The position numbers and the translations under genes are program-made. A DNA stretch of 64,000 nucleotides from Candidatus Omnitrophota bacterium (lineage in GTDB: Bacteria > Omnitrophota > Gorgyraeia > Tantalellales > Tantalellaceae). The notes under the pieces are model-generated. The model was not told where the DNA came from. It ran no database searches and worked only from the letters and a program-made list of their open reading frames with translations. The DNA lies in the NCBI GenBank assembly GCA_016783605.1, contig JADHWG010000001.1, forward strand, positions 4,712 to 68,711, in the 5' to 3' direction. This document shows, one piece after another, positions 3,715 through 61,752 of the stretch; the first letter of the stretch is position 1, and every line of letters starts with the position of its first letter.

Positions 3715-6700
3715 TTAGAGCGACGAATCGATCTGATCTATACAATCTTTCCAGTCGCTTCGATCTATTCTTTCCATTGGTATGCCGAGGAGAAGTGTTT
3801 CCAACACCAAACGCATTAAAGTAACCGCGGCGCCTATTTGGAGCATCCTTCTTTGCCCGGTTGGAATTTCATTATAGGAAAGCATCAGATATAAGTCTTT
3901 TATGTCAATATCCTGACTGTGCGTTACGGCTCGCATCAGCTTTTTTATGTCCTGAGCGAGAGTTTGTTCACCATTTTCCGCTTTTTGGACATCTTTAGGA
4001 GTGAGACATCCTTGGAGAATACCTATTCTTAAAGCAGTAGACGCGTATAGCCACCCTTTGCCGCTTAATCCTTCTATGTCGGGAAGAGACAAAATTCTTG
4101 TTTGTTTAAGTATGTCCTCCAATTTCTCAGGCATATCAAAATCGCTTTCAGGCTGTATAGCTGTAATATTTGATTCGGTCGCGAATAAAACGGGTATCCT
4201 TACGTCTTCAGGACTTTTCGAACTTAGACTGCTACTGAGCAAATTTACCACACTTTGCTGATCTAACCCTGCTTCACTATTGTATTCTTTAATCTTTACC
4301 GCTCCTTTACCGAAAAGTTTATCCAGATTCCGCTGAGTTTTTTCTTTGGAACCATCACCTGAAAGGCTATCAGAAAACATCTCTTTAGGAACGATAAGAT
4401 CGATCTTGTTTTTCTTTACGAGAGAAGCGTGTTTTTCTAGCATTTCGTATACGTTGTAAACAGCCTGTTCTCCTTCTGTATTAGCATAACTCGCCTCAAC
4501 AATAACTGTCTCACTATGCAAAGTCTTTTTAATCCAGTAGTCGTTAATTTCACGTACCGTGGGTGGTTTTCGGAAATGAAATTTTCTGCCGTCCGGACTC
4601 TCAATTATCAGTCTTCCTTCAATAGAATCCCCGTCTTCCCGAATATCCATGTTTACATCTATCACCTCTCCCGGTCCGAATACAACAATTTTTTCATCTT
4701 TATCCACAAGAAGATTATTGTTATTGATTTCGATCTCTACCGCGCCGCTCTTTACAACAAGCCTATGAGGTCTTTGCACTCCCCCATGTGTTATCCTCTT
4801 TGGCGGACGTTTCTTTTCACCATTAATCGTGATCACGTCCACTTCCTCGGATTTCAGACCATAATCTTTAATAACACCTCTTTCTTCGCTTGCAACAATA
4901 TTTGTTCCTCCTATTTTTTTGCCTTGTTTAAACGGTTTTGCAATTGGAATTTTTCTTTTCAGGGCGGGAACAAATATGTCCAGGATTTCCGCTTCTTGTT
5001 CTAACGTCTCAACTGATACGCTCTTCGCGGAAGCCGGGATCACAAGCAAGAATCCTCCTTTCGCTAAAGACACAATCTTTGCGGTTTTTATATCTCCCCT
5101 CGCGTCTGTAACAGAAATAGTCGCTGATCCTGTTTTAACAGCAAGGATGTGAAGTCCGTGTGTTGATTCCTCCGGTTCTTCCCCTAAAGATAAAACGTTT
5201 TTTCCGTCTGATTGTGCCATAATAATTCTGTCCATTCTGTAAGCACTCTTTACCAGAATGTTGAGTTCCACGCTATCCTTTTCTTGCAATTCTTTTACCC
5301 CCATTTCAGGAAACACAATACCGTTTTCCCGAATAGCGTCTTTGCCTAAAAGTTCTTCGGGAAAATATTTTAGCGCGCTCTTTAACTTCGACAGTGTGAT
5401 CGTCTTCGGCGCATCCGGTGATTCTAAGTTACATGCATCAATATCACCTTCGAGATCCAAATAAAACGGAGCCCCGTTTTTGATAGTTTCGGTTATCGTT
5501 GCGTCTATCCCTTCAGGTTCTTCTACATCTTCATAATATCCTTTTTGCCTGGCAAGCGGCGCGGCTTTTTGCGGTTCAGATTCATTCGCGGTCATTTCGG
5601 CGTGTACTGCCATTACTTCGTTGATCGGGGTAATAGCGGGCATATGTTTCCTGTCCGATATAATTTGAATTGTTTTCGCGAGATCATCATCAAGCTTTGT
5701 TTTTAAATTACTAACATTTGTCGAGCGGTATTCATACTCGGGAATGATCGCCTGTATCCCGGCTTTTTCCATATTTGCAATCTGCCGAGGAGCCGACACT
5801 GCTGTCGGGTCAATTACAGCATGTGTCACACCGGCTGATGCCAAAAATTCCGCCGGAATAATACCGGTATTGGATCCTGTTCCGCGTGTCGCGATATTAT
5901 CTTCGCGACCGTCGATCGTTATTATTTTTTTCTTTTCATCTGTCGTCGCGTCCCGGAATAACTCGCTCACGTCTTCACCGCGAAGTTCGCGAAGAGCCGC
6001 GTCAATGTGAAGCCGGGAAATACAATGAAAAATGTTCACTTTTTCAAGATCCACGCCGGCGTCTTCATAACCTTGTATCCACGGCATCCAGGGACCTTTT
6101 TCGTTTGCCTTAAAGTTGTACAAAAGATCGAGCCCGTCTTTTACACCCGCGGCAGTTTCGGCTAATTTAACCGCGTTCGCGAGGGTGTAAATATAGCGCG
6201 CGACAAACGCGCCGTTATAACCGGCGACCTCTACCATGCCTTCAATGATATCAGCCTTTGTTCCGCCGCCGTAAGAGATTTTCAATCTTTTTCGGTATTC
6301 TTCGCGCAGGTCTTCGATCATATTGTTCCACCAATCGCCTTTCCAAGCATCTTTATCTTTAAAAACATAGCCAAATAGTGTCGCAATATTTTCCGCCTGA
6401 GTTATCTCCATTTCCGAAGGCACTCCCAATTCCAAAAACACAGGTATCTGCTTTTCCAGACGGAATTTCGCGACCTTCTCATGAAGAGATGCTCCACGAA
6501 TCGCTTTAACAGGTTCATACGGATTTATAAACTGGTACAGAACGGTTTCTATCGGCACATTTTCGAACAGTATTTTTATCTGATAGTTTATCTCATAGAC
6601 CGTTGAAATTTCTTCTATGATGCGGCGTTTTACTTCATCTAAGTTATTCAGTATTACCTCGATTGTTTTGGCTATTGTACCTTGTTGGTCTATTATTTTT

Positions 6701-8607
6701 TGCGTGCTAAGATCATTCCACCTTAGATCGTATTCTAAAAACGACGCGTATTTGTCCTCTATCGCGCCTATAATATCCGGGGTCTCATTATTCTCCGCGG
6801 CTTCTTTTGTAACATCATCTACCAGTTTTTTAAATTCAGCCTCAAGTAAAGGCTTCAAAATACCGTAATACGCACCGTATTCTTTATGTGTTTTAATGCC
6901 TTCTATCTCATCAATCTTCTGTACCGCGTCGACCTCATGGCTTAAAGCCCACACAGCTTTCATATCTTCATCATTTGTCAGGTTTTTTTTCAACGCTATT
7001 TCATCCGGCGTAACAGGAAAGAAACGTAAACCTCTTTCATGGTATTCCTTGTCCGTCATAAAGTCACCCCAAGGTCCGACGATCCTATATGCGGCTTTTT
7101 GAAATAAATCTCTTTGCGCGCGTATCGCCACAATACCCATATTCAGATAATCCCTTACCTCAGAATGCCCGATAGCAACCAGCATAGGCGCGCCGACAGG
7201 AATATCATCCGGCGTCATATCAGGCGTGACTATTGTGACAGGTCCTATCGGATCCCACTGGTACCAAACTTCGTTATTGAATCCTTTCACGTGGTTAATT
7301 TTCTTATTTTTAAGCCACAGCTCCTCGAGGATTTCTTCAGCGTCATCAGGTTTCTTGCTGATGAGCGTGGCAAATTGCTCTACGGTAAAGGGCGTATGTT
7401 TACCAAATACCTTTGCCATTTCATAATATCCTTCAAGAGATCCATCGTCTACAACAATTGTCTGCGCTATTATCTCTTCATTTCTGCGAAATATGTCCTC
7501 AAATTTCTTTTCCTGTTTTCGGAGCGCGCTTAGCCTTGCCATGATGGGCCGGATATCCGAGCCCTGCTGATTATTTACCCATTCTTCTTCGCTTTTGAAG
7601 CCAAATGCCGCGATCGCGTCAGACGTCAGTGCTATTAAGCCAAGCGCAATTCGCGTATGAATGTCTTCATGCTGTGCTAAAACTATTTTTTCCGATTCTG
7701 TGAGACGGTCATACGATGATTCCCTCATGTAGTAGTATTCCTCCACGCTTTCCAGACTTCCATATTTTTCATACTGTTTTCTTGTCTCTCTGGTACCGGG
7801 ATGGCATTCAATATCACTCGGCGCTCCAGTTGATTCAATGTATTTTTCGTAAAGTTCATCCGGCAAAACGATAAAATATCCACCGGTTGCGTTGTCTCTC
7901 CTGCCATACATTTTCATAAATTCTTCTTGTATTTTGGCCTTACCATTTGTTCTAAAGCTTACACTTATTTGCCTCTTCAGGTCTTCAATTGTAAGCGTGA
8001 TCGCCAGATTTAGCCTACCGTGCTCCTCCCGCGTCAGCGGTTTATTTCGATTCGCTCCGGTTCGGGCATACCACTCACCCGCCGACCGGGTTGGAAGACC
8101 GGCTTTTCCCCTTGCCCTTATTCTAAACTTATCGAATTCAACTTTGACGCGCGTCCTTATTTCATTCGGAATGTTTTCTTTGCCAAGATTTTTTTCATAT
8201 TTTCCTAAAAAATCCGTAAAAATCGTTTCCCAATCTTTGTCGTTTTCTACGAGTTTCATCCATTCGCTGTGCGCTTCTTTTTCGCTCTCAAAGCTAGGTA
8301 TCATCTCTTTTTTCATCCCATCAAGATAGCTCTCTACACATTTCCCGGTTGCTTCTCTGATCTTGTCAAGAACTCCGTCTTTGCTAATATCCTTGAACCA
8401 CTCTTTCAGGTTTTTCTCTACATCTTTGTCGAGTACAATCCTACTCCCAAATCCGAATTTTAAAGCTGTCGAGAGAGTGTCTTGTGTAGATTCCGGAACG
8501 ACAGAAAAACGCTCTGCCGCGAAAGTCGTATTGCTAAAAGAAAAAGCCAAAACTAAAAAAAGGCTTATTGTTTTACAGAACGTTGATTGTTTGAAATTAC
8601 TTTTCAT
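3715..8607 (-). CDS. giant secreted protein (1630 aa), function unknown; contains an HExxH (HEDIH) motif
   Basis: Long uninterrupted ORF with an N-terminal signal peptide (LFLVLAFSFSNTTFA). No family was recognised by eye. It has a single zincin-like HEDIH motif. Confidence 0.7.
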   Translation of the reverse strand: MKSNFKQSTFCKTISLFLVLAFSFSNTTFAAERFSVVPESTQDTLSTALKFGFGSRIVLDKDVEKNLKEWFKDISKDGVLDKIREATGKCVESYLDGMKKEMIPSFESEKEAHSEWMKLVENDKDWETIFTDFLGKYEKNLGKENIPNEIRTRVKVEFDKFRIRARGKAGLPTRSAGEWYARTGANRNKPLTREEHGRLNLAITLTIEDLKRQISVSFRTNGKAKIQEEFMKMYGRRDNATGGYFIVLPDELYEKYIESTGAPSDIECHPGTRETRKQYEKYGSLESVEEYYYMRESSYDRLTESEKIVLAQHEDIHTRIALGLIALTSDAIAAFGFKSEEEWVNNQQGSDIRPIMARLSALRKQEKKFEDIFRRNEEIIAQTIVVDDGSLEGYYEMAKVFGKHTPFTVEQFATLISKKPDDAEEILEELWLKNKKINHVKGFNNEVWYQWDPIGPVTIVTPDMTPDDIPVGAPMLVAIGHSEVRDYLNMGIVAIRAQRDLFQKAAYRIVGPWGDFMTDKEYHERGLRFFPVTPDEIALKKNLTNDEDMKAVWALSHEVDAVQKIDEIEGIKTHKEYGAYYGILKPLLEAEFKKLVDDVTKEAAENNETPDIIGAIEDKYASFLEYDLRWNDLSTQKIIDQQGTIAKTIEVILNNLDEVKRRIIEEISTVYEINYQIKILFENVPIETVLYQFINPYEPVKAIRGASLHEKVAKFRLEKQIPVFLELGVPSEMEITQAENIATLFGYVFKDKDAWKGDWWNNMIEDLREEYRKRLKISYGGGTKADIIEGMVEVAGYNGAFVARYIYTLANAVKLAETAAGVKDGLDLLYNFKANEKGPWMPWIQGYEDAGVDLEKVNIFHCISRLHIDAALRELRGEDVSELFRDATTDEKKKIITIDGREDNIATRGTGSNTGIIPAEFLASAGVTHAVIDPTAVSAPRQIANMEKAGIQAIIPEYEYRSTNVSNLKTKLDDDLAKTIQIISDRKHMPAITPINEVMAVHAEMTANESEPQKAAPLARQKGYYEDVEEPEGIDATITETIKNGAPFYLDLEGDIDACNLESPDAPKTITLSKLKSALKYFPEELLGKDAIRENGIVFPEMGVKELQEKDSVELNILVKSAYRMDRIIMAQSDGKNVLSLGEEPEESTHGLHILAVKTGSATISVTDARGDIKTAKIVSLAKGGFLLVIPASAKSVSVETLEQEAEILDIFVPALKRKIPIAKPFKQGKKIGGTNIVASEERGVIKDYGLKSEEVDVITINGEKKRPPKRITHGGVQRPHRLVVKSGAVEIEINNNNLLVDKDEKIVVFGPGEVIDVNMDIREDGDSIEGRLIIESPDGRKFHFRKPPTVREINDYWIKKTLHSETVIVEASYANTEGEQAVYNVYEMLEKHASLVKKNKIDLIVPKEMFSDSLSGDGSKEKTQRNLDKLFGKGAVKIKEYNSEAGLDQQSVVNLLSSSLSSKSPEDVRIPVLFATESNITAIQPESDFDMPEKLEDILKQTRILSLPDIEGLSGKGWLYASTALRIGILQGCLTPKDVQKAENGEQTLAQDIKKLMRAVTHSQDIDIKDLYLMLSYNEIPTGQRRMLQIGAAVTLMRLVLETLLLGIPMERIDRSDWKDCIDQIDSSL

Positions 8608-9009: not shown

Positions 9010-9078
9010 ATTTAAATAGGGACGTCACCCATTTAATTAAGAGAACAAATTGAAAATGGGTGACGTCCCTATTTAATG
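9010..9078. repeat. long inverted repeat (25-bp arms: atttaaatagggacgtcacccattt / aaatgggtgacgtccctatttaat)
   Basis: Arms separated by ~18 nt. Shares the GGGACGTCACCC core with the hairpins that flank the HEPN/MNT pair. Confidence 0.6.
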
Positions 9079-9092
9079 AATATTCGCGTTTG

Positions 9093-9545
9093 CTAAAGCA
9101 AATCAGGGGTTATTTCCCATAACAGTTTCCATTTTTCTTGGTATTCGAGACAAATTATGCCGGAATGCTTAAAGGTGATGCTTTCATTTTCTTCGTTTTC
9201 GAAGAGCAAGAGGGAGGTGAGTTTTCGTAAAAACGGGAGGTGCCCCACGATCATTATGTCTCTTCTTACGGCTTCCAATTCTTCTTTGATCTTGGCAACT
9301 TCATCATTAGGATTCAGATCAACTCGTTCATTTATCTCCGTTTTTTCGATATATTCAGTGATTATTTGTACGGTTTCGATCGAACGCATCTTTTTACTGT
9401 GCCATATGCTCGCGACACTGATCTTTTCCGCTTTTATGAACCGTCCCATTTTCTGAGTTTCGTCTTTGCCTTCTTCACTTAAGGGTTTTTGAGGATCTTG
9501 CTCCTCCGTCAAAGAAAGCCCGTGTTGGATCAAATAAAGTTTCAT
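9093..9545 (-). CDS. sixA: phosphohistidine phosphatase SixA (histidine phosphatase superfamily)
   Basis: MKLYLIQHG…RHG-type catalytic motif, ~150 aa. I moved the start to the internal Met because the N-terminal extension in the ORF track reads through a repeat. Confidence 0.65.
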   Translation of the reverse strand: MKLYLIQHGLSLTEEQDPQKPLSEEGKDETQKMGRFIKAEKISVASIWHSKKMRSIETVQIITEYIEKTEINERVDLNPNDEVAKIKEELEAVRRDIMIVGHLPFLRKLTSLLLFENEENESITFKHSGIICLEYQEKWKLLWEITPDLL

Positions 9546-9664
9546 ATGTCTACCCCCCTCTTTAATAACGTTAAAAAACTTTCTCTCCCGGAACCACCTC
9601 GTAGGTGGAACCGGTTGTTCCACCTACGAGGTGGTTCCGGTAAAGGGCACGGCATGCCGTGCCC

Positions 9665-26590: not shown

Positions 26591-27952
26591 TTATAAATCT
26601 ACAACTTGAATTTCATTTGTATCGTTTATACTATTCATAAAGTCGTAAATTTTATTATCAAAAATTATGTCACTTTCAGCGATCGGTCTTTTTAAGCGGA
26701 TGCCTTCCAGGGCGCGGCATCGGCTTAACGCGACATAGGTCTGTCCATGAGTAAAAGCGCCGCGGCCGATATCTATCATAACTTTATCGAACGTCTGCCC
26801 CTGACTTTTGTGTATTGTTATCGCCCATGCCAATTTTATTGGATATTGTTTAAAACAACCGATAACTTTTTCCTCGATATTGTCAGTTTTTTTATTGTGA
26901 GAATATCGTATTTTTTCCCAAGTCATTTTGGGAACGTCACAAATTTTCTGATCTATACTCACCCGTATCAAACTGTCGGAGAGTTCTACAACCCTGCATA
27001 TCGTCCCGTTCACCCATTGTTTTTTAGGATCGTTTTTAACCATGATCACCTGGGCGCCGGTTTTCAGCGTAATATCTTTTTCGACCGGATAATCTTTATC
27101 TTTAAATTCTCCTTCTATTGAGGCGGAATATGTGAATTCTTCATTCGAAATTTGAGCGAGACGCTTTTTGTTAATTCTTTCCGCGACACTATTCGTTGCC
27201 GTTAACGTCACAACTCCTTCATTCTCCTCTCGATTATCACTATCTACTCTTTCGTTCAAACCAAAAAGATCGTCCGCGGCGCATATCTTTTCTCGGACTT
27301 TATTTAAGAGAGAGATAAATTTCTCATCTTTTTGCCTGTATATTTTACTGAGATCGATCGTTCTCAATTTAATTTCTCTAAATACGTTAGCGCTGAAAAA
27401 ATATGGACTGGTGTATCTCTGTTTTAGAATATCTTCGAATTCTTTGTTAACGACCGGCGGCAACTGAAAAAGGTCCCCGAACAAGATCATCCTCGCGCCT
27501 CCAAACGCCGAATTCATTTCATTTCTGTTCAATCTAAGCGAAGAATCTATCCCATCCAGCAGATCCGCCCTTACCATAGACGCCTCATCAATAACAACAG
27601 CATCAATGCGATGCATCAGATCATCTTTATATAAGCGTTTAATGTGGTCGCGCAGAATAAACCTCGGCGGAAACCTGAAAAAGGAATGAATCGTTTGTCC
27701 ATGCACTTTGATAGCCGCGACCCCGGTCGGCGCCAATACAACGATATTCTTTCGGGTGTTCATCCTGAAATATTCCAAGAGAGTTGACTTCCCCGTTCCG
27801 GCTTTCCCCGTAATAAAAATATGTTCACGAGAATTCTCCAAAAGTTCAAATGCCGCGCGAAATTCGTCATTAAACTCAAAGTCGGTCGGAAGTTCCGTTT
27901 TTGTCTCTCGTACAAGTTCATTTTTAAAATCATCCGGCATACTTAACTCCAA
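26591..27952 (-). CDS. Pif1/RecD-family (AAA_30) DNA helicase
   Basis: Walker A GKAGTGKST, VIDEASM, and C-terminal AITIHKSQGQTFD / GQTYVALSR motifs. Confidence 0.7.
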   Translation of the reverse strand: MELSMPDDFKNELVRETKTELPTDFEFNDEFRAAFELLENSREHIFITGKAGTGKSTLLEYFRMNTRKNIVVLAPTGVAAIKVHGQTIHSFFRFPPRFILRDHIKRLYKDDLMHRIDAVVIDEASMVRADLLDGIDSSLRLNRNEMNSAFGGARMILFGDLFQLPPVVNKEFEDILKQRYTSPYFFSANVFREIKLRTIDLSKIYRQKDEKFISLLNKVREKICAADDLFGLNERVDSDNREENEGVVTLTATNSVAERINKKRLAQISNEEFTYSASIEGEFKDKDYPVEKDITLKTGAQVIMVKNDPKKQWVNGTICRVVELSDSLIRVSIDQKICDVPKMTWEKIRYSHNKKTDNIEEKVIGCFKQYPIKLAWAITIHKSQGQTFDKVMIDIGRGAFTHGQTYVALSRCRALEGIRLKRPIAESDIIFDNKIYDFMNSINDTNEIQVVDL

Positions 27953-28086
27953 TCACAAAATCTTTACTTTGTCATCCCCCCTATTGTATCAACACACCGC
28001 GGTGATACAACCGTTTTTCCCCTCACTTAGTTACCTTTTTGTCGGTTCTGAGTTCAAAGCAGCTCGTCACTAACAAAAACAGGAAC

Positions 28087-28127
28087 ATCTCCCTTGCGGG
28101 TGACGTCCCTGTTTTTTCTTTTTTTGT
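28087..28127. repeat. hairpin-terminator repeat, copy 1 (aacaggaacatctcccttgcgggtgacgtccctgtt)
   Basis: Near-identical to copy 2 at 29225..29265 and in the same orientation. The two copies bracket the HEPN/MNT pair. Confidence 0.7.
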
Positions 28128-28595
28128 TTAAAACTTGAACTGCTGTTGTGGGTTTTCCTTCCTAATCTCTTTTTTAATAATCTGAATAAACTTAGTTGCC
28201 GAACTTAAGGCATTCTTTGCGTCAGTATTTGAAAGATTCAATTTCCACGGTTCATAGATGAATTTATTACGGTTTTTTCTCATATAATCAAATTTTGCGG
28301 TTAATGCTTTATATTCCGCACCCAAAAAATATTCCGTGAAACCCACAACTGTTTTGTGTTGGAAATTTGTTGTAGGTCTGAAGCCTTTTATGAATACAAA
28401 CGCTCTTGCCGCGTGAAGCATGGCGTTATAAGCCATCTCATATGAACATGTCTCATCTATCGCAAGTGTTTTTTCACTGGCCTTCAGTTTACTCTCTGCA
28501 GCCTGTATCAACTTCTCTATCTGACCTACTCCTATCTTCTCCCTTTTAATAAGCTTCTTTTCTAAATATTCATTCAAAAATTTATCAGAGTTCAT
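28128..28595 (-). CDS. HEPN-domain protein (putative toxin of a HEPN/MNT pair)
   Basis: 155 aa all-helical, with an Rx6H motif (FRPTTNFQH). Overlaps the upstream nucleotidyltransferase gene by 11 nt. Confidence 0.55.
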   Translation of the reverse strand: MNSDKFLNEYLEKKLIKREKIGVGQIEKLIQAAESKLKASEKTLAIDETCSYEMAYNAMLHAARAFVFIKGFRPTTNFQHKTVVGFTEYFLGAEYKALTAKFDYMRKNRNKFIYEPWKLNLSNTDAKNALSSATKFIQIIKKEIRKENPQQQFKF

Positions 28596-29157
28596 TTGCT
28601 GTTCCCTTTATTAATATTTTTTTTCCTTTCACTACCGCAGAGACAAAAGAATCTTTCTTCGCTTTTTCTTTTTTATATTCCTTTTCCGTATATGTCGTGT
28701 AATTGACTTCTCGGAACAATTCTTTTTCGAGTCCACTTATAACTGTTATTAAGTTGTTCTCATCAATATTGTCACCTATTAAAAACAGGTCTACATCACT
28801 ATCGTTTCTCTCATCTCCTTTAGCGAAGGATCCGTATACGAATGCCATCCTAATGCCATTTATAGCTATTATGGCGTCACTAAGATATTTGATGATTCCT
28901 TCTGTTTTGTGAAAAATATTTTTTAACTCTTCATATATGGGACTCCTCTTATTTAATGAAAAAAGCTTAATGTTTCCCACGCTTCTAACATTAAGCATCC
29001 CCAAAGAAAGAAGTTTTTTTAACTCCCGGTGTACATTTCCAACGGATATCTTATGCATTGAAGCCAACTGCCGGGTATAGAACTCATTGTCGGGTTCACC
29101 AAAGAACGTGCTCAATATGATCTGTCTGGTTTTTGATCCTAATATTTCTTTAAACAT
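28585..29157 (-). CDS. winged-HTH plus minimal nucleotidyltransferase (MNT) protein
   Basis: GSFAKGDERNDSDVDLFL nucleotidyltransferase (NTase) signature (GSx9-13DxD) with an N-terminal HTH. Confidence 0.7.
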   Translation of the reverse strand: MFKEILGSKTRQIILSTFFGEPDNEFYTRQLASMHKISVGNVHRELKKLLSLGMLNVRSVGNIKLFSLNKRSPIYEELKNIFHKTEGIIKYLSDAIIAINGIRMAFVYGSFAKGDERNDSDVDLFLIGDNIDENNLITVISGLEKELFREVNYTTYTEKEYKKEKAKKDSFVSAVVKGKKILIKGTANEL

Positions 29158-29224
29158 ATTGTTCCTCTTTCGAGAACAATTGTACTCATATTGAGAACAT
29201 AAGTCAAGCTTAATTTCAAAATGA

Positions 29225-29265
29225 AAACAGGGACATCTCCCTTGCGGGTGACATCCCTGTTTTTA
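29225..29265. repeat. hairpin-terminator repeat, copy 2
   Basis: aacagggacatctcccttgcgggtgacatccctgtt followed by a T-run. Confidence 0.7.
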
Positions 29266-29416
29266 TAGAAACTGTTCATTTTTTATACATATCAGATATA
29301 TTTACACTTTTGCTTATATATTCTGCTCTTTTTGCATATAAGAATTTTTCTGAATGAGACCCTCCTCAAATGACTATCATTGAATAAGTACCTTTTCGGA
29401 GATAAAGAGATAAGAA

Positions 29417-29662
29417 CTATTGGTTATTGCCGATGAGGGCCAGTTTTTTAGTCCTGTTCCATTTCTTAAGCTGGATTTCGCGGTTTCTGGCTGTGGATTT
29501 ATCAGGATGCTCTTCCTGATAAACAAGTTCAACCGGGAGGCGCATTCTGGTGTATCTACTTGCCTTCTTTTTGTTGTGGCGTTCGACTCTTTTTGTAACG
29601 TCCGTGGTTATGCCGACATAGAGTTTGCCGTCATTGCATTGTAAAATATAAAGATACCACAT
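29417..29662 (-). CDS. GIY-YIG nuclease superfamily protein (UPF0213-like)
   Basis: YILQCNDGKLYVGITTDVTKRVERHN motif; I moved the start to MWYLY. Confidence 0.75.
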   Translation of the reverse strand: MWYLYILQCNDGKLYVGITTDVTKRVERHNKKKASRYTRMRLPVELVYQEEHPDKSTARNREIQLKKWNRTKKLALIGNNQ

Positions 29663-29693
29663 AAGCTTTGGTATGCCGTAAATTTGCATGATA

Positions 29694-29960
29694 CTGGCCC
29701 CTCGACTCGCTCTTCGAGCTCGCTCGGGGTCAAATATAAAAAGTCCCGATTAAGTGTTTTTTAACCGGGACTTCTTTTTCGCGTTACGTTTTTCTGGTCC
29801 CTCAACTCGCTAAAATGCTCCTTCTCGTCGCATTTCTTCACGCTCGTTCGGGATCAATTTTCGCGTTCGCGAAAATTGGTCCCTCAACTCGCTAAAATGC
29901 TCCTTCTCGTCGCATTTCTTCACGCTCGTTCGGGATCAATTTTCGCGTTCGCGAAAATTG
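29694..29960. repeat. tandem repeat: one degenerate plus two perfect 82-bp units abutting the tRNA-Lys 3' end
   Basis: The unit gtccctcaactcgctaaaatgctccttctcgtcgcatttcttcacgctcgttcgggatcaattttcgcgttcgcgaaaattg occupies 29797..29878 and 29879..29960. The last unit overlaps the tRNA CCA. On the tRNA strand each unit ends …GGGAC followed by CA. Confidence 0.8.
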
Positions 29961-30034
29961 GTGAGCCGCCTTGGACTCGAACCAAGCACCCACGCCTTAA
30001 AAGGGCGTTGCTCTACCGGATGAGCTAGCGGCCC
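29959..30034 (-). tRNA. tRNA-Lys (anticodon UUU), CCA encoded
   Basis: Acceptor stem GGGCCGC/GCGGCUC, anticodon arm ACGCC-CUUUUAA-GGCGU, T-arm GGTTCGAGTCC. Confidence 0.85.
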
Positions 30035-30054: not shown

Positions 30055-30621
30055 TCAGTTCATTATTTCTTTTTCTTTTTCAGCTAAAATTGTTTCCAGT
30101 TTTTTTGTGTAGTCAGTCGTCAATTTCTGTACTTTGTCTTTTGTAAGAAATTTGTCGTCTTCGGTCATTTTGTTATCTTTTTCAAATTTCGCGGCTACGT
30201 CGTTCGCGTGATGACGTGCGTTTCGTATTGAAACTTTTCCTTCTTCAACTATTCTGTGAAGCACTTTTACAAGTTCAACTCGTCTCTCTTTTGTTAACTG
30301 CGGCATGGAAAGACGTATAAGTTTGCCGTCGTTTATCGGGGTTATCCCTATGTCGGATGTCAGGATCGCTTTCTCTATCGGGTCCATGGAAGACTTATCC
30401 CACGGCTGGATCACTATCATACGCGGTTCCGGAATGGTTATATTCGCCAATTGTTTAAGCGGCGTTTTTGTGCCGTAATAATCTATTTTCACACTGTCAA
30501 CCAAACTCGGATGAGCTCTTCCGGTCCTGATGCTTGAAAATTGTTTTTTAACGGCCTCGAGCGCTGTTTTCATTTTAAGTTCGGACTCTTTTACAACTCT
30601 GTCAATTTCTGTTTGAATCAT
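30055..30621 (-). CDS. frr: ribosome recycling factor
   Basis: 188 aa with full-length family similarity. Confidence 0.9.
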   Translation of the reverse strand: MIQTEIDRVVKESELKMKTALEAVKKQFSSIRTGRAHPSLVDSVKIDYYGTKTPLKQLANITIPEPRMIVIQPWDKSSMDPIEKAILTSDIGITPINDGKLIRLSMPQLTKERRVELVKVLHRIVEEGKVSIRNARHHANDVAAKFEKDNKMTEDDKFLTKDKVQKLTTDYTKKLETILAEKEKEIMN

Positions 30622-30632
30622 AAAAACCTCCC

Positions 30633-31361
30633 TTAAGCGATCATCGTACCTATTTTTTCTCCGAGAATGGCGCGTTTTATGTTTCCTTTTTTCTTCATAT
30701 TAAAAACCACTATCGGCAAACTGTTATCCATACAAAGGCTTACCGCTGTTGAATCCATAACTTTCAGTTTGTTTTTCAGAACTTCCATGTAGTCAAGTTT
30801 TTCGAACTTTTTCGCGTCTTTGTATTTTACGGGATCCTTTGAATATACCCCGTCAACTTTTGTCGCCTTTAGAACCATGTCGGCTCCGATCTCTATCGCT
30901 CTGAGCGCGGCGGCGGTGTCAGTCGTAAAATACGGGTTTCCGGTTCCGCACACGAATATTACGACACGTTTTTTTTCCATGTGCCGTACGGCTCGACGGC
31001 GAATGTATGGTTCAGCAAGTTCACACATATCTATCGCCGTTAAAACCCGCGTATCCACTCCCGCTTTTTCCAAAGCGTCCTGAAGCGCGAGCCCGTTCAG
31101 CATTGTCGCCAACATTCCCATATAATCGGCGGTGGATCTGTCCATTCCTTTGGCGGCGGCGGACAAACCGCGAAAAATATTTCCTCCGCCTATAACTACC
31201 GCGATCTCCGCGGAGGATTTGCTTATTTCTTTTATTTCAAGAGAAATTGATTTTACAACCTCGGGATCCACTCCATATCCCAATTTACCCATAAGCGCTT
31301 CACCGCTTATTTTAAGTACTACACGTCTGAGTTTTTTCGTTTTCTTTGTCATTATTTCCAC
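30633..31361 (-). CDS. pyrH: UMP kinase
   Basis: Amino-acid kinase fold; the sequence [10 protein letters not shown] near the N-terminus and GGGN are its conserved motifs. Confidence 0.9.
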
Positions 31362-33107: not shown

Positions 33108-33283
33108 GTCCTTCTCCTTCTTACTTCGGTCTGTCTCGCATTTTACGCGATTAAAAATTTTGATACACTCAAAATCATCGCGCGCAAAAAGACGTAACCG
33201 TTTTAATGTTAAAATCGCATTATAACTGAACGATTATTATATAAAAAATCAGCATAAATTCAAGCAAAATATGCTTTTTTGTC

Positions 33284-33413
33284 GTAGGGGCACGGCATGC
33301 CGTGCCATTTACCGCACCAATCATCGATCCAATGAGGGCACGGCATGCCGTGCCATTTACCGCACCAATCATCGATCCAATGAGGGCACGGCATGCCGTG
33401 CCCCTACGAGGTT
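33284..33413. repeat. BIME-like array: three REP-A palindromes (GGGCACGGCATGCCGTGCC) separated by an identical 28-bp linker
   Basis: Cores at ~33288, 33336 and 33384; linker atttaccgcaccaatcatcgatccaatga. Its 'spacers' are identical, so it is not a CRISPR. Confidence 0.8.
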
Positions 33414-47652: not shown

Positions 47653-47716
47653 ATTTTACCACCATTTTTGATTGTTAAATAATAACACACATACCCACCA
47701 CATTCAAGAGTTAATT

Positions 47717-47855
47717 GAGGGGTCGGGGAGTTTCCCGACTCCTCATCCTGAAGCCCAAAGGGCTGAAGGATCTCTATAGATTCTTTTGGAAGATTAACAA
47801 GAGATCCTTCGCTTTGCTCAGGATGAGTGGTCGGAGAAAAACTCCCCGACCCCTC
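47717..47855. mobile_element. MITE-1, copy 1 (139 bp; TIR GAGGGGTCGGGGAG; TSD AGTTAATT)
   Basis: ~60-bp imperfect inverted arms; identical 8-bp direct repeats flank the element at 47709..47716 and 47856..47863; inserted next to a REP-A copy. Confidence 0.8.
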
Positions 47856-47885
47856 AGTTAATTGAGGGCACGGCATGCCGTGCCC

Positions 47886-50440: not shown

Positions 50441-50449
50441 AAATTAATT

Positions 50450-50588
50450 GAGGGGTCGGGGAGTTTCCCGACTCCTCATCCTGAAGCCCAAAGGGCTGAA
50501 GGATCTCTATAGGTTCTTTTGGAAAATTAACAAGAGATCCTTCGCTTTGCTCAGGATGAGTGGTCGGAGAAAAACTCCCCGACCCCTC
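50450..50588. mobile_element. MITE-1, copy 2 (139 bp; TSD AATTAATT)
   Basis: Same TIRs as copy 1; 8-bp direct repeats at 50442..50449 and 50589..50596. Confidence 0.8.
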
Positions 50589-50590
50589 AA

Positions 50591-51856
50591 TTAATTCAAA
50601 TCCGCCCCTACTTGTTTGCGCACCCGCGCGGGAACTCCCATTACCGTTTCTCCGGCGGCGACATCTTTATTTTTCGTAACAACACTTCCCGCGCCTATTT
50701 TCGCGCCTTTCCCAATTTTTACCGGCGCAACAAAAATTGCGCCGACTCCTACAAACACATCATCTTCTATTATCGTGTTAAACTTTTTCTCACCATCATA
50801 ATTCGCGGTGATCACTCCCGCGCCGACATTCACTCGCTTGCCGACTACGGCGTCCCCCAGATACGTGTGATGTTTCACCCGCGTTTTGGTTCCTATTTTT
50901 GTCCGGCAAACTTCCACAAAATTTCCTATTTCAACTTCTTCCGCAAGCCGCGAACCGCCGCGAAGCCTGGCAAAGGGCCCGATCCGGCAGGCCGCCTTAA
51001 TTTCAACATCGGCTTCAATAACCGTATTCGGAAAAATTATGGTTTCAGCTTCGATCTTTGCCGATTCATCTATGTATGTCGACTCCGGAGCGATTATGGT
51101 CACTCCTTTTTTCATTAACTTCTCGAGAGTTTTTCTGTTCATAATAGTATTCGCGCGCGCCAGATCTTCTCTTGAATTTATCCCTACCGCCTCTTCCGCG
51201 CCGCAACCGACCGCAACCGCTTTTTTCCCATTCTTCACAAAGAGATCAATAACATCCGTCAGATAAAACTCTTTTTTCTTCTCGTTGATCTTAACGCGTT
51301 TTATAAATTCTTCAAGGCCATCTCGAAGAAAACAATAAGTTCCGACATTTATCTCTTTAATTTCTTTTTGAGCTTGTGTCGCGTCTTTTTCCTCACAAAT
51401 CGCCGAGACATTTCCATCCGCGCCGCGAATGATTCGCCCGTATTCCCCCGCGTCGGTTAAAACCGAAGTTAATACCGTACACCCCGCCTTCTCTGAAAAA
51501 TGTGTATCCATCAAATTTCGATAAGTCGCACTTGTTATGAGAGGCGCATCAGCGCACGTTACCAATACGTCTTTTTCTTTCGTAAGACCGTCCAGCGCCT
51601 GTTTCAGGGCGTCTGCCGATCCCAAAAGTTTTTTTTGTTCAACAAACTTTAGTTTTTCACCTGTCAAAGAACTTTTGATCTGCTCCGCGTTATATCCTAC
51701 AACAACCGTAATGTCCGTTATACCGGAGGATCTAAGATTTTCTATAACTCTTCCCAATATCGTCTTCGATCCAACTTTGTGCAATACTTTGGGAAGACCG
51801 GATTTCATCCTGGTCCCTTTACCCGCCGCCAAAACAACCGCCGTAATGTTATTCAT
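50591..51856 (-). CDS. glmU: bifunctional GlcNAc-1-P uridyltransferase / GlcN-1-P acetyltransferase (GlmU-like)
   Basis: N-terminal nucleotidyltransferase motif LAAGKGTRM and a C-terminal left-handed beta-helix with hexapeptide repeats. Confidence 0.75.
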   Translation of the reverse strand: MNNITAVVLAAGKGTRMKSGLPKVLHKVGSKTILGRVIENLRSSGITDITVVVGYNAEQIKSSLTGEKLKFVEQKKLLGSADALKQALDGLTKEKDVLVTCADAPLITSATYRNLMDTHFSEKAGCTVLTSVLTDAGEYGRIIRGADGNVSAICEEKDATQAQKEIKEINVGTYCFLRDGLEEFIKRVKINEKKKEFYLTDVIDLFVKNGKKAVAVGCGAEEAVGINSREDLARANTIMNRKTLEKLMKKGVTIIAPESTYIDESAKIEAETIIFPNTVIEADVEIKAACRIGPFARLRGGSRLAEEVEIGNFVEVCRTKIGTKTRVKHHTYLGDAVVGKRVNVGAGVITANYDGEKKFNTIIEDDVFVGVGAIFVAPVKIGKGAKIGAGSVVTKNKDVAAGETVMGVPARVRKQVGADLN

Positions 51857-51953
51857 CTTTCTGTTTCCTTAAGTTCCCACCGATAATTGGCTACCCGATG
51901 CTGTCCATAGCCTAATTTCAAACATCAATTTTGTCAACTATTTGAGGGGTCGG

Positions 51954-52064
51954 GGAGTTTTTCGACCCCTCATCCTGAAGCCCAAAGGGCTGAAGGATCT
52001 CTATAGATCCTTCGCTTCGCCCAAGATGACACCTTTGCAAGAGGGGAAAACTCCCCGACCCCTC
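51954..52064. mobile_element. MITE-1, copy 3 (111 bp internal-deletion variant; TSD AACTATTT)
   Basis: Same TIRs; 8-bp direct repeats at 51946..51953 and 52065..52072. Confidence 0.75.
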
Positions 52065-52237
52065 AACTATTTATCAAAATGCCCATCCGTCGCTACAGAA
52101 GCGATTTTATAAAATTGGAGTGAAATTTTATTTGACAAATAGTGTTCTTTCATGTACACTTTACGTAGGATTTGATTCAAGGGACTGGGGATTCCCGGTC
52201 GGCAAAAAGCTCTGACGTAAGTCGGAGCTTTTTGTTT

Positions 52238-58724: not shown

Positions 58725-58905
58725 GTTTTTTCTCTTTGTCAATTAATCGGACAAGGCAGGCCTTGTCCCTACGAACAATATAAAACATACCCAACAAATC
58801 GTAGGGGCCGGGCCTGCCCGGCCCTTTTATCCCCATCATCATTGATAACCTTTATGTGTTGGTGCCATTATAAACGGTTACCTGAATTGTGACAATATAC
58901 ACCCT
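58725..58905. mobile_element. MITE-2, 5'-truncated copy, flanked by a 35-bp duplication of the transketolase-N 3' end
   Basis: Right TIR ggttacctgaattgtgacaat is present and the left TIR is absent. Direct repeats ttgattatcc(g/a)atccgttttttctctt(t/c)gtcaa lie at ~58711..58745 and ~58906..58940. Confidence 0.65.
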
Positions 58906-61487: not shown

Positions 61488-61752
61488 ATATTGTCACAAT
61501 TCAGGTAACAAATCGATAGTGACCGGGGGGCCACCCGACCATTTTATCCCCTCTTCAATTAATCGGACAAGGCAGGCCTTGTCCCTACGAATAATATAAA
61601 GCATATCACAACAAATCGTACGAATAATATAAAACATGCCACAACAAATCGTAGGGGCCGGGCCTGCCCGGCCCTTTTATCCCCATCATTATTGATAACC
61701 CTTATATGTTGGTGTCATTATAAACGGTTACCTGAATTGTGACAATGTACAC
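61488..61752. mobile_element. MITE-2, complete copy (~265 bp; TIR ATTGTCACAATTCAGGTAAC)
   Basis: Left TIR tattgtcacaattcaggtaac and right TIR gttacctgaattgtgacaatgtaca. Internal conserved blocks aattaatcggacaaggcaggccttgtccctacga and gtaggggccgggcctgcccggccc. Confidence 0.75.

Follow-up and report, generated by a model that had tools for sequence, protein, structure and literature searches.

A PDC-M05 MNT-HEPN gene pair flanked by two terminator-like hairpins in an Omnitrophota genome

The gene pair and its control region

The minus strand of the window, that is, of the whole 64-kb stretch of DNA that was analysed, carries two overlapping genes that encode a minimal nucleotidyltransferase with a winged helix (wHTH-MNT) and a HEPN protein. 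The genes form one operon in the order MNT then HEPN, which is common to all relatives, and the 11-nt overlap described in a first-pass annotation is present here and in all relatives. Two copies of a hairpin, both in the same orientation, bracket the pair. The genes, control elements and nearest neighbours are:

26591..27952, minus strand: PIF1-like helicase; downstream neighbour, variable and absent at this position in relatives
28128..28595, minus strand: HEPN protein, 155 aa; AF0298/UPF0332-like HEPN-T, putative RNase toxin/effector; PDC-M05B
28585..29157, minus strand: wHTH-MNT, 190 aa; ArsR/SmtB-like winged helix and minimal nucleotidyltransferase, putative antitoxin/autorepressor; PDC-M05A
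29160-29178, minus strand: operator-like site O2, near-palindromic, TGTTCTCGAAAGAGGAACA; overlaps the ribosome-binding site
29179..29207, minus strand: sigma-70-like module promoter with TTGACT (29202-29207), a 17-nt spacer and TACAAT (29179-29184)
29181-29199, minus strand: operator-like site O1, near-palindromic, TGTTCTCAATATGAGTACA; overlaps the -10 box
29417..29689, minus strand: GIY-YIG protein, 90 aa; upstream neighbour, context outside the module
29959..30034, minus strand: tRNA-Lys(UUU); upstream context

On one side, the locus is further bordered by rpsB, tsf, pyrH, frr, an ABC transporter, lpx genes and bamA; the other side holds a response regulator, a histidine kinase, a Na/Pi transporter, archease, RtcB and SerS. 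The G+C content of the module is 33-36%, that of frr/pyrH 40-50% and that of the response-regulator/kinase genes 30-38%, and the base composition around the module showed no sharp island boundary.

The promoter hexamers show 10 of 12 matches, and both are conserved throughout the nine homologous modules that were aligned, whose genomic contexts differ. O1 and O2 are conserved among the module homologues as GTTCTC-N5-GAG(N)AC. Judged from this sequence pattern, both are putative binding sites of the N-terminal wHTH. A DNA-binding component was missing in early analyses of MNT-HEPN pairs (PMC2701414); the conserved promoter together with the two GTTCTC-N5-GAGNAC palindromes provides a concrete candidate operator for the wHTH domain.

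Fold and family of the two proteins

In Pfam, the MNT protein was assigned to Polbeta/NTP_transf_2 and the HEPN protein to HEPN PF05168. The GSx10DxD motif previously read in the MNT protein was borne out, with G109, S110, S120, D121 and D123 invariant in 23 sequences. The best fold matches of the MNT protein (AF2 model, pLDDT 86) were the MNT antitoxins 8xeo, 8xeh and 7bxo as well as CadC/HlyU wHTH proteins. For the HEPN protein (AF2 model with a four-helix HEPN fold, pLDDT 90), Foldseek ranked 2hsb first (AF_0298; TM 0.62/0.74, 24% identity), followed by 1wol, 1ufb and 3o10. A profile search also matched 2hsb (E 1.2e-4), and a PDB search with the single HEPN sequence gave no match. By structure and by profile, AF0298/UPF0332 (2hsb; also 9xbd, 9xbc) is the best match and has the same motif pattern, whereas the protein described here has ~25 extra N-terminal residues and a wHTH-fused MNT as its partner.

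Six residues of the HEPN protein are invariant, namely R73, H80, R106, R109, N110 and Y114. The Rx6H motif reported earlier is present and invariant as R73 and H80, but it does not occupy the canonical HEPN motif position, which reads R109-x4-Y114. The end of helix 3 is R109-N-K-F-I-Y114, and RNxxxY recurs in the alignment with 2hsb and 9xbd. H80, located in the segment 70-92 that separates helix 48-69 from helix 93-114, is the family's alternative histidine in the helix 2-3 insert. An alternative histidine N-terminal to a motif that lacks one has been described for HEPN-T proteins (Anantharaman et al. 2013, PMC3710099). The AF0298-like HEPN-T pattern is found here in full: R109 is kept, the canonical histidine is absent and the alternative H80 is invariant.

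PADLOC identified the MNT protein as PDC-M05A (PDLC04368, E 1.7e-56, residues 3-189 against positions 7-194 of 201 of the profile) and the HEPN protein as PDC-M05B (PDLC04374, E 5.1e-15, residues 7-149 against positions 3-143 of 146). Both proteins match this system, in which M05A combines an ArsR-like HTH with a KNTase-like nucleotidyltransferase and M05B is a HEPN protein, over their full length. Gene order, adjacency and domain architecture are the same as in PMC12881386, with no structural difference, and the pair is an ordinary further member of the catalogued family. The N-terminal HTH had been regarded as unusual for a nucleotidyltransferase of this kind; it is in fact a defining feature of PDC-M05A (PMC12881386). 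What sets the present pair apart is that it comes from Omnitrophota; an enrichment of PDC-M05 in archaea has been reported (PMC12988326). The evidence for an antiviral role of the family comes from a single tested representative, which protects E. coli from one or more phages (PMC12881386), and this role has been called unconfirmed (PMC12988326). For toxin-antitoxin and defence biology, the pair changes little.

The earlier proposal of a toxin-antitoxin-like pair of the HepT/MntA type holds for the toxin-antitoxin likeness. It does not hold for the DUF86 HepT/MntA family, since the matches are to PF05168 and PDC-M05 instead. Like the type VII HepT/MntA systems of Shewanella, Aphanizomenon and Legionella, the pair has the MNT gene 5′ of the HEPN gene in overlapping frames, an intact GSx10DxD motif, an MNT fold nearest to 8xeo, 8xeh and 7bxo, and a conserved tyrosine at the HEPN motif. 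On the other hand, its HEPN protein belongs to PF05168/UPF0332 (HEPN-T) and not to DUF86 (PF01934), the canonical RxxxxH is replaced by R109-N-K-F-I-Y114 with the histidine being H80 of the helix 2-3 insert, and the N-terminal wHTH of the MNT has no counterpart in MntA. MntA AMPylates a tyrosine next to the HEPN motif (PMC7641770, PMC13000451). By extrapolation from DUF86, which is another HEPN family, the HEPN protein may possess RNase activity and may be a target of AMPylation. The MNT would neutralise the HEPN protein, probably by nucleotidylylating the conserved tyrosine; the candidate is Y114, which takes the position of the canonical catalytic histidine. The wHTH would additionally repress the operon via both operators.

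A different function is conceivable, in which a small molecule or RNA is modified by a split kanamycin-nucleotidyltransferase-like enzyme with MNT as its catalytic and HEPN as its substrate-binding subunit. This is how HI0073/HI0074 and MNT-HEPN pairs were historically read (PMC2701414, PMC3710099), and both the fold matches to HI0073 (1no5) and aminoglycoside nucleotidyltransferases and the absence of the canonical catalytic histidine from the HEPN protein are in line with it. However, the wHTH and the conserved operators point to a self-regulated module, its distribution is patchy and independent of context, and in one lineage the HEPN gene is truncated by a nonsense mutation. Furthermore, the family match derives from defence islands and includes a member that is protective against phage (PMC12881386), and H80, R109 and N110, all invariant, agree with the alternative active site of HEPN-T proteins (PMC3710099). 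We therefore consider a split enzyme improbable.

The hairpin at gene ends and the boundaries of the module

Three members of the hairpin family were found in the 64-kb window with a covariance model, and other hairpins are used elsewhere in it; the family is not the general-purpose terminator of this genome:

28072..28119, minus strand: hairpin copy 1, A/T tracts included; core 28079-28112; 67.2 bits
29220..29267, minus strand: hairpin copy 2, A/T tracts included; core 29227-29260; 64.8 bits on the minus strand, 31 bits on the plus strand
9014..9074, no strand assigned: long-loop palindrome relative with perfect arms AAATAGGGACGTCACCCATTT, ~20 nt apart; 33.9 bits on both strands

The two copies at the gene pair are near-identical and in the same orientation, as had been noted, whereas the position given earlier for the first copy, 28087-28127, lies ~8-15 nt too far right. 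The 34-nt core is exact at 29227-29260 and has 2 mismatches at 28079-28112; no further copy within 3 mismatches was found in the 64-kb window, where shuffled sequences lead one to expect 0. Both differences are transitions that keep the pairing, by means of G-U pairs, on the minus strand, the strand of the genes. Folded as minus-strand RNA, copy 1 has an energy of -26.5 kcal/mol (z -7.3) and copy 2 of -25.6 kcal/mol (z -6.8), and each stem is followed on its 3′ side by a U run, UGUUUUU or UGUUUUC. Copy 2 consists of an A-run, a 15-bp stem with one A.A mismatch, a GCAA loop and a U-run. The consensus of the family is an A-run, GGGACGUCACCC-GNNA-GGGAGAYGUCCC and a U-run. The base of the hairpin reads AAAACAGGG...CCCTGTTTT here, and ATA/TAT and AAA/TTT in other copies. 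Copy 1 starts 8 nt past the HEPN stop codon; copy 2 lies 160 nt 3′ of the GIY-YIG stop and ~20 nt 5′ of the -35 box of the module. Beyond the palindrome itself, the flanks of the two copies show no similarity.

The recurrence of the core GGGACGTCACCC in a distant inverted repeat, also reported earlier, was confirmed on both arms of the long-loop relative (9019-9030 and 9058-9069), which lies 19 nt 3′ of the stop of the minus-strand gene at 9093-9623. L008 and L015 contain similar long-loop forms, and L033 and L014 nested or partial tandem variants. Rfam searches returned only tRNAs for the whole window at the gathering score and only chance-level matches for 27950-29420 at E up to 10. A literature search with the 12-mer of the hairpin found unrelated primer sequences only.

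A scan of a genome collection found seven strict copies on five contigs of the Omnitrophota MAG JBDRBG and one in JBDRNE. The hairpin also occurs in MAGs labelled Planctomycetia and on ~10 distinct metagenome contigs. A scan of viral contigs found one unrelated G+C-rich palindrome only. G+C-rich pattern matches in L012, L020, L022, L025, L027, L031, L032, L034 and L035 lack the A/T tracts and were discarded as fortuitous or unrelated. The closest gene or tRNA upstream lies on the sense strand of the hairpin, at a distance of 0-270 nt, in 17 of 18 non-redundant copies, with the ORFs around metagenome copies called by a crude longest-ORF method. The genes 5′ of the copies are unrelated to each other: tRNA-Lys (twice, with the hairpin directly 3′ of the CCA end), frr, an alginate-export-like porin, an RRM protein, lipoate ligase, IspG, SMC, glutamate dehydrogenase, an integrase, an HD/OB protein, response regulators, an MFS transporter and a small membrane protein. 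G-U pairs are found at one stem position in 13 of 19 copies, and the covariance-model scores are 63-74 bits on the sense strand compared with 31-46 bits on the antisense strand. Both observations point to the sense strand as that of the RNA.

With its G+C-rich stem, tetraloop, 3′ U-run and 5′ A-run, and with its site on the coding strand 0-270 nt past stop codons or tRNA 3′ ends, the hairpin resembles bidirectional intrinsic (Rho-independent) terminators. The hairpins are gene-end signals of intrinsic-terminator-like character, and their shape and position suggest that they terminate transcription. Copy 1 is the probable terminator of the two-gene MNT-HEPN operon. This agrees with one of two readings offered in the first-pass annotation, that of insulating terminators, as the hairpin is found singly after many unrelated genes and tRNA-Lys in other genomes.

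Homologous modules were found in nine other genomic contexts with 41-92% identity (MNT homologues: 92, 79, 75, 66, 64, 62, 61 and 41%). These contexts comprise frr-tRNA-Lys regions, hydEGF, the dcw cluster, a glycosyltransferase cluster, purB and nrdR. The module follows frr-tRNA-Lys in the window, in L037, in L041 and, inverted, in L016. L041 and L042 also have the GIY-YIG gene 5′ of the module; L037, L016 and L046-L049 do not. In the alignments, homology runs from the -35 box to TAAACAAAA, ~8 nt past the HEPN stop, and both hairpins are thus outside the module. In none of the nine other contexts does the hairpin stand on both sides.

These boundaries bear on the second reading, which saw a cassette moved by site-specific recombination. 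In this case the hairpins would be recombination sites, attC-like or of the IS200/IS605 type, and promoter, MNT and HEPN an inserted or excisable cassette. Two near-identical imperfect hairpins in direct orientation around a toxin-antitoxin-like pair would be expected from such a cassette, and the conserved, strand-marking mismatch is reminiscent of the extrahelical bases of attC and IS200-type hairpins. Toxin-antitoxin genes are common cargo of integron cassettes, and attC sites, too, are imperfect hairpins in one orientation at ORF 3′ ends. In L010, moreover, a single gene of 131 aa is bracketed by two copies with identical flanks. The module does move, since its copies in L041 and L042 are flanked by other direct repeats, which resemble tRNA 3′ halves; no such tRNA-like fragments flanking the module were found in the window. 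Against the cassette, the hairpins lie beyond the homology boundaries of the module, the nine other contexts lack the flanking pair, and single hairpins follow housekeeping genes and tRNA-Lys, outside the mobile unit. The R''/R' boxes of attC (RYYYAAC/GTTRRRY) are absent, as are an integrase and attI; the stem is instead flanked by terminator-typical A/U tracts, and the module has its own promoter, in contrast to most integron cassettes. No recombinase, integrase or transposase was found within ~10 kb on either side of the module, and no att-type repeat of the tRNA-Lys 3′ end in the 64-kb window. A comparison of hairpin 2 with the GIY-YIG-to-MNT spacer of L042, as filled and empty site, involves sequences too diverged to place insertion boundaries. 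Taken together, a recombination cassette is very unlikely: the hairpins are neither recombination sites nor parts of the module.

We consider it likely that a mobile toxin-antitoxin-like module and lineage-wide terminator-like hairpins have become two independent neighbours at this locus. The module would be a self-contained, horizontally mobile two-gene unit of ~1.09 kb (roughly 28125-29207, minus strand) with its own sigma-70-type promoter, two GTTCTC-N5-GAGNAC operators, the wHTH-MNT gene and, from the 11-nt overlap, the gene for the AF0298-type HEPN protein. The upstream hairpin copy would end the GIY-YIG transcript and shield the module promoter from read-through, and the downstream copy would end the MNT-HEPN transcript. 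That two of the three family members of the window stand around one 1.1-kb module would be a mild coincidence, an arrangement of low probability by itself.

Conservation and probable spread of the hairpin

The sequence of ordinary terminators is not conserved between loci or species. In contrast, the hairpin described here keeps its 12-bp stem sequence and the A.A mismatch across genomes, an invariance that is partly an ascertainment effect, because the 12-bp core was fixed in the search patterns. The outer stem pairs, which were left free by the search pattern, covary. That one sequence-conserved terminator-like palindrome, mismatch included, is reused in an Omnitrophota lineage is the mildly unusual point of the locus. 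This conservation suggests a REP-like copy-and-paste element, and the occurrence of identical stems at non-homologous sites likewise suggests that the palindrome spreads by copy-and-paste. It may spread in a REP- or MITE-like manner or by gene conversion, so that nearby gene ends would acquire the same copy. In L010, three copies lie within 2.3 kb, each after one of three consecutive unrelated genes, and this clustering hints at some local spreading process.

A related view holds that the hairpin is a purely selfish REP/MITE-like palindrome without a terminator role and that it flanks the module by chance or through local hopping. Near-identical stems at non-homologous sites of different genomes speak for it, as do closing-pair subtypes that vary by genome (ACA/TGT in the window and CAYPYT, ATA/TAT in JBDRBG), the nested, partial tandem and long-loop forms, and the abundance of other REP-like repeats in the window. 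On the other hand, the strand bias of 17 in 18, the restriction of G-U pairs to the sense strand and the consistent A-run/U-run frame are expected from selection for termination or 3′-end stabilisation. Furthermore, the GTAG motif of RAYT-mobilised REPs is absent and the copy number is low. A purely selfish palindrome appears unlikely; it overlaps with the reading of the hairpins as lineage-wide terminator-like neighbours of a mobile module and is compatible with it.

It is also possible, though doubtful, that the hairpin constitutes an undescribed, strand-specific copy-and-paste element of Omnitrophota and related PVC bacteria which spreads locally and whose stem and mismatch are read by a protein. 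The invariant stem and A.A mismatch would then have a dedicated reader, such as a RAYT-like enzyme acting on single-stranded DNA or an RNA-binding protein, and the locally spreading hairpin would supply ready-made 3′ ends to its neighbours, newly arrived modules included. We know of no cultured, genetically tractable representative of the phylum Omnitrophota. If the hairpin is mobile or recognised by a protein, it would represent a new repeat family, of practical use for marking where genes end in these MAGs and likely to cause assembly breaks.

Among known repeats, REP/BIME elements and the inverted DUS/USS pairs that also serve as terminators are similar to the hairpin in being short, imperfect intergenic palindromes at gene 3′ ends with genome-specific subtypes. 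Compared with uptake sequences, its copy number is far lower (3 per 64 kb; 7 strict copies in the MAG JBDRBG). Unlike RAYT-associated REPs, it has no GTAG head next to it, and no transposase associated with it was identified. A separate repeat family of the window (CGTAGGGGCACGGCATGCCGTGCCC) does carry GTAG.

The paired hairpins and their structure

Every gene in the region of the MNT/HEPN module is carried on the minus strand. In order of transcription, the features are as follows.

30055-31361 (-), pyrH and frr
29959-30034 (-), tRNA-Lys(UUU)
29795-29958 (-), perfect 82-nt tandem duplication; a separate terminator hairpin also lies between tRNA-Lys and the GIY-YIG gene
29417-29689 (-), GIY-YIG gene, 90 aa
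29227-29260, hairpin copy 2 (core)
29179-29207, promoter TTGACT-17-TACAAT
28585-29157 (-), MNT gene, 190 aa, overlapping the HEPN gene by 11 nt
28128-28595 (-), HEPN gene, 155 aa
28079-28112, hairpin copy 1 (core)
26591-27952 (-), PIF1-like helicase gene, followed by a response regulator and a histidine kinase

The first-pass annotation described two near-identical hairpins flanking the gene pair in the same orientation, and this was borne out. The 34-nt core is exact in copy 2 and carries two mismatches in copy 1; no further site within three mismatches was found in the window, and none is expected by chance. The coordinates originally assigned to copy 1 were off by about 8-15 nt; the rest of the observation stands. 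Recurrence of GGGACGTCACCC was also confirmed, on both arms of an inverted repeat near 9019-9069.

Read as minus-strand RNA, the hairpin is aaaaACAGGGAYGUCACCC-GCAA-GGGAGAUGUYCCUGUuuuu, a 15-bp stem with one A.A mismatch and a GNRA-type loop, with an A-run and a U-run on either side. Copies 1 and 2 fold with -26.5 and -25.6 kcal/mol, respectively (z about -7). They differ by two transitions, which change G-C or C-G to G-U or U-G on the minus strand and give A.C mismatches if read on the plus strand, where copy 1 folds less stably (-18.1 kcal/mol). The two strands of the hairpin are therefore not equivalent, and the one that folds better is the transcribed strand.

Hairpin copies in other genomes

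When each GTDB species, represented by a single genome, was scanned with a degenerate hairpin pattern, ten loci matched. Among the Omnitrophota MAGs, JBDRBG carries seven copies over five contigs and JBDRNE carries one; copies were also found in two MAGs labelled Planctomycetia. An actinomycete match without A/T tracts looks like chance. In a metagenome scan both mismatch positions were left free in the pattern, and about ten more distinct A/T-framed copies were obtained; G+C-rich matches were set aside as unrelated. The A.A mismatch is present in six of the new copies and base-paired in one (locus L019). Since these positions were unconstrained, the mismatch is a conserved feature and not an artefact of the pattern. 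Loops vary (GCAA, GAAA, GUAA, GAUA, GCCA, GACA, GUUA), and pairs beyond the 12-bp core covary (ACA/UGU, AUA/UAU, AAA/UUU, AGG/CCU), with 23 cells altered on both sides compared to 6.3 in shuffles. That the 12-bp core does not vary is in part a consequence of how the search patterns were set. When a covariance model made from 19 copies was run over the 64-kb window, it detected no more than three family members: the two hairpins, at 67 and 65 bits, and a long-loop form at 9014-9074, at 34 bits; the remaining terminators of the window scored below 18 bits.

To assess position, non-redundant copies were oriented with GGGACGUCACCC first and the nearest upstream gene or tRNA was scored, ORFs near metagenome copies being assigned by a simple longest-ORF rule. 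The upstream gene or tRNA lies on the strand of the hairpin in 17 of 18 copies, at a distance of 0-270 nt. The exception is L008, and L033 lies at a contig edge. By our own binomial estimate, the strand bias is about 1e-4 against 50:50. No common theme links the upstream genes. In L009 and L016 the hairpin stands directly at the CCA end of tRNA-Lys, and in L010 one copy follows each of three consecutive genes, including those of a 131-aa membrane protein and an MFS transporter. The hairpin also follows frr, two response regulators, and genes for an alginate-export-like porin, an RRM protein, lipoate-protein ligase, IspG, SMC, glutamate dehydrogenase, a tyrosine integrase and an HD/OB-fold protein.

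Two readings of the hairpins had been proposed, insulating terminators or the borders of a cassette moved by site-specific recombination. The latter is contradicted by the many single copies behind unrelated genes, the very outcome named in advance as speaking against it, and no recombinase gene was found within ~10 kb on either side of the module. The same-strand location at gene ends supports the former, that is, gene-end elements predicted to act as terminators. Copy 2 would end the GIY-YIG transcript and insulate the module promoter, and copy 1 would end the transcript of the module itself.

The sole non-routine feature is the conservation of the sequence of a terminator-like palindrome across genomes. 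Closing-pair subtypes vary by genome, and the identical stem occurs at non-homologous sites. Long-loop variants of the GGGACGTCACC palindrome have perfect arms, AAATAGGGACGTCACC(C/T)ATTT, with about 20-30 nt between them (window 9014-9074; L008 1696-1769; L015 7019-7074). In L033 (1-100) one copy is nested in the loop of another, and L014 (495-548) shows a partial tandem duplication; all these variants resemble traces left by an element that moves or recombines. Taken together, the shared stem, the subtypes and the nested, partial and long-loop variants imply that the palindrome spreads via some templated process, which would explain why the same copy stands at adjacent gene ends in the window and in L010.

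The MNT/HEPN module

Homologues of the two proteins (MBL7072174 and MBL7072173 of a 'Candidatus Omnitrophica' MAG) number more than 100 each; almost all have the same lengths, 190 and 155 aa, and most come from Omnitrophota MAGs. For comparison, nine other genomic contexts of the module were fetched.

Genomic contexts of the module (locus; MNT identity; surroundings)
L037/L040; 92% (Frr 84%, PyrH 90%); rpsB-tsf-pyrH-frr-tRNA-Lys, opposite-strand MazE-like pair, module, HTH-cupin gene
L041; 79%; frr-tRNA-Lys-GIY-YIG-methyltransferase-module-glgE
L042; 75%; hydEGF-GIY-YIG-module
L046; 66%; within dcw cluster, murG and murC either side
L048; 64%; adjoins purB
L047; 62%; within glycosyltransferase cluster
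L049/L050; 61%; adjoins nrdR
L016; 41%; frr-tRNA-Lys-hairpin, then module inverted

No module-flanking hairpin was detected in the nine contexts by fuzzy pattern search and covariance model with filters off; the one copy in L016 is the tRNA-Lys terminator. In alignments, module homology starts at the -35 box and ends at TAAACAAAA, ~8 nt past the HEPN stop. Both window hairpins are located just outside these limits, and no similarity was found between the flanks of copies 1 and 2. Judged by these comparisons, the module evidently travels without the hairpins.

In the MNT protein, a winged helix of the ArsR/SmtB type (fold matches to CadC, HlyU and CzrA) forms the N-terminal part and a minimal nucleotidyltransferase the C-terminal part; the latter most resembles the MNT antitoxins 8xeo, 8xeh and 7bxo, as well as HI0073. 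Its GSx10DxD motif is invariant, and the wHTH-MNT assignment of the first-pass annotation agrees with these domain and fold matches. The HEPN protein is of the PF05168/UPF0332 type. Its AF2 model (pLDDT 90) best matches AF_0298 (2hsb), then ST0689, TT1696 and sacsin HEPN, whereas DUF86 HepT toxins match only weakly. An Rx6H motif had been proposed; the histidine, H80, is present and invariant, but it lies in an insert between helices 2 and 3 and not at the canonical Rx4-6H site at the end of helix 3 (residues 93-114), which reads R109-N-K-F-I-Y114. This R109/H80 arrangement is exactly that of AF0298-like HEPN-T proteins, for which a histidine in the helix 2-3 insert was proposed as an alternative active site (Anantharaman et al., PMC3710099). 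Y114 is invariant as well, and at the aligned position two PDB entries of related HEPN proteins, 9xbd and 9xbc, differ, one having Tyr and the other Phe.

Both proteins match the components of the PADLOC candidate defence system PDC-M05 over their full length. Its A subunit combines an ArsR-like HTH with a KNTase-like nucleotidyltransferase, and one representative shielded E. coli from at least one phage (PMC12881386); according to another survey, the antiviral role is still unconfirmed (PMC12988326). The gene pair of the window is an additional member of a known family.

The module promoter is kept in all nine aligned modules regardless of their neighbours. Two near-palindromes are interleaved with it: O1, TGTTCTCAATATGAGTACA, overlaps the -10 box, and O2, TGTTCTC-N5-GAG(G)AACA, overlaps the ribosome-binding site. 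Both are obvious candidate binding sites of a dimeric wHTH and would provide autoregulation as is typical of toxin-antitoxin operons. We propose that the module is a PDC-M05-type MNT/HEPN-T pair that functions autonomously and regulates its own expression. HEPN would be the RNA-targeting effector, and MNT would repress the operon via its wHTH and hold HEPN inactive. The inactivation would most plausibly occur through nucleotidylylation, by analogy with type VII systems (PMC7641770, PMC13000451).

In L037 (6908-6913; also L038-L040), the HEPN gene has TGA where the window has TGG (W118). The resulting truncation to 116 aa occurs in contigs from several samples and, in this closest relative, is consistent with decay of a putative toxin. 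A second two-gene module lies beside the inverted pair downstream of tRNA-Lys in L016 of JBDRBG (L016 302-1517, minus strand) and encodes a 283-aa protein with an HTH-resembling N-terminal region and a 126-aa protein. The region after frr-tRNA-Lys hence appears to be a hotspot of small accessory modules in this clade.

Other repeats and features of the window

In L041 (1566-1822, 3421-3784) and L042 (about 5410-5432, 7190-7300), the module, in L042 together with GIY-YIG, lies between direct repeats of another kind. Each unit joins a segment like a tRNA 3' half (T-arm and acceptor, with CACCA at its end) to a hairpin, AAAAGCCUCGUAGC...GCUACGAGGCUUUUU, and to roughly 150 nt more (77-85% identical). 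It looks like an att-type scar or a tRNA-derived dispersed repeat; no such direct repeats were found in the window, nor any repeat of the tRNA-Lys 3' end.

The 82-nt tandem units begin right at the CCA end of tRNA-Lys. Each folds into a hairpin, AUUUUCGCGAACGCGAAAAU, and a second stem, UGAUCCC...GGGACCA; the unit terminus, ACCA, resembles a tRNA acceptor end. After tRNA-Lys, L037 has one shorter unit (5147-5208) and L041 two partial units (140-262); fold z-scores of the tRNA-Lys-linked units are -4.5 to -5.6. The duplication could represent a structured element linked to the tRNA, or a source of assembly breaks. Further, a motif TATCTCTTTATCTC(T/C)(A/G)AAAAG...ATTTAAT is conserved ~170-230 nt upstream of the module promoter in the window (29392-29412, minus strand, directly abutting the GIY-YIG stop codon), L041 (1774-1794, 3736-3756) and L042 (about 5768-5790).

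A REP-like palindrome headed by a 5' GTAG, CGTAGGGGCACGGCATGCCGTGCCC, occurs sixteen times across the window (e.g. 3590, 8959, 9640, 13183, 13231, 33283-33404, 35454, 35502, 47861, 58680, 62824), often in pairs spaced 48 nt, and CCTCGTAGG and CCTACGAGG represent additional palindrome families. This unusual richness in intergenic palindromic repeats suggests RAYT-type activity in the genome. Two more dispersed families of 130-150 nt (80-98% identical, with internal palindromes) occupy 47709-47863, 50442-50596 and 51936-52072, and 1453-1585, 58769-58901 and 61619-61751, respectively.

Gene calling splits RtcB, which lies downstream of archease, into two adjacent pieces, 51 and 248 aa long (L001 10124-11025; window roughly 18.9-19.8 kb); a frameshift, recoded stop codon or misassembly could account for this. 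A 1630-aa ORF with an apparent signal peptide (3715-8607, minus strand) follows just downstream of the 9014-9074 palindrome.
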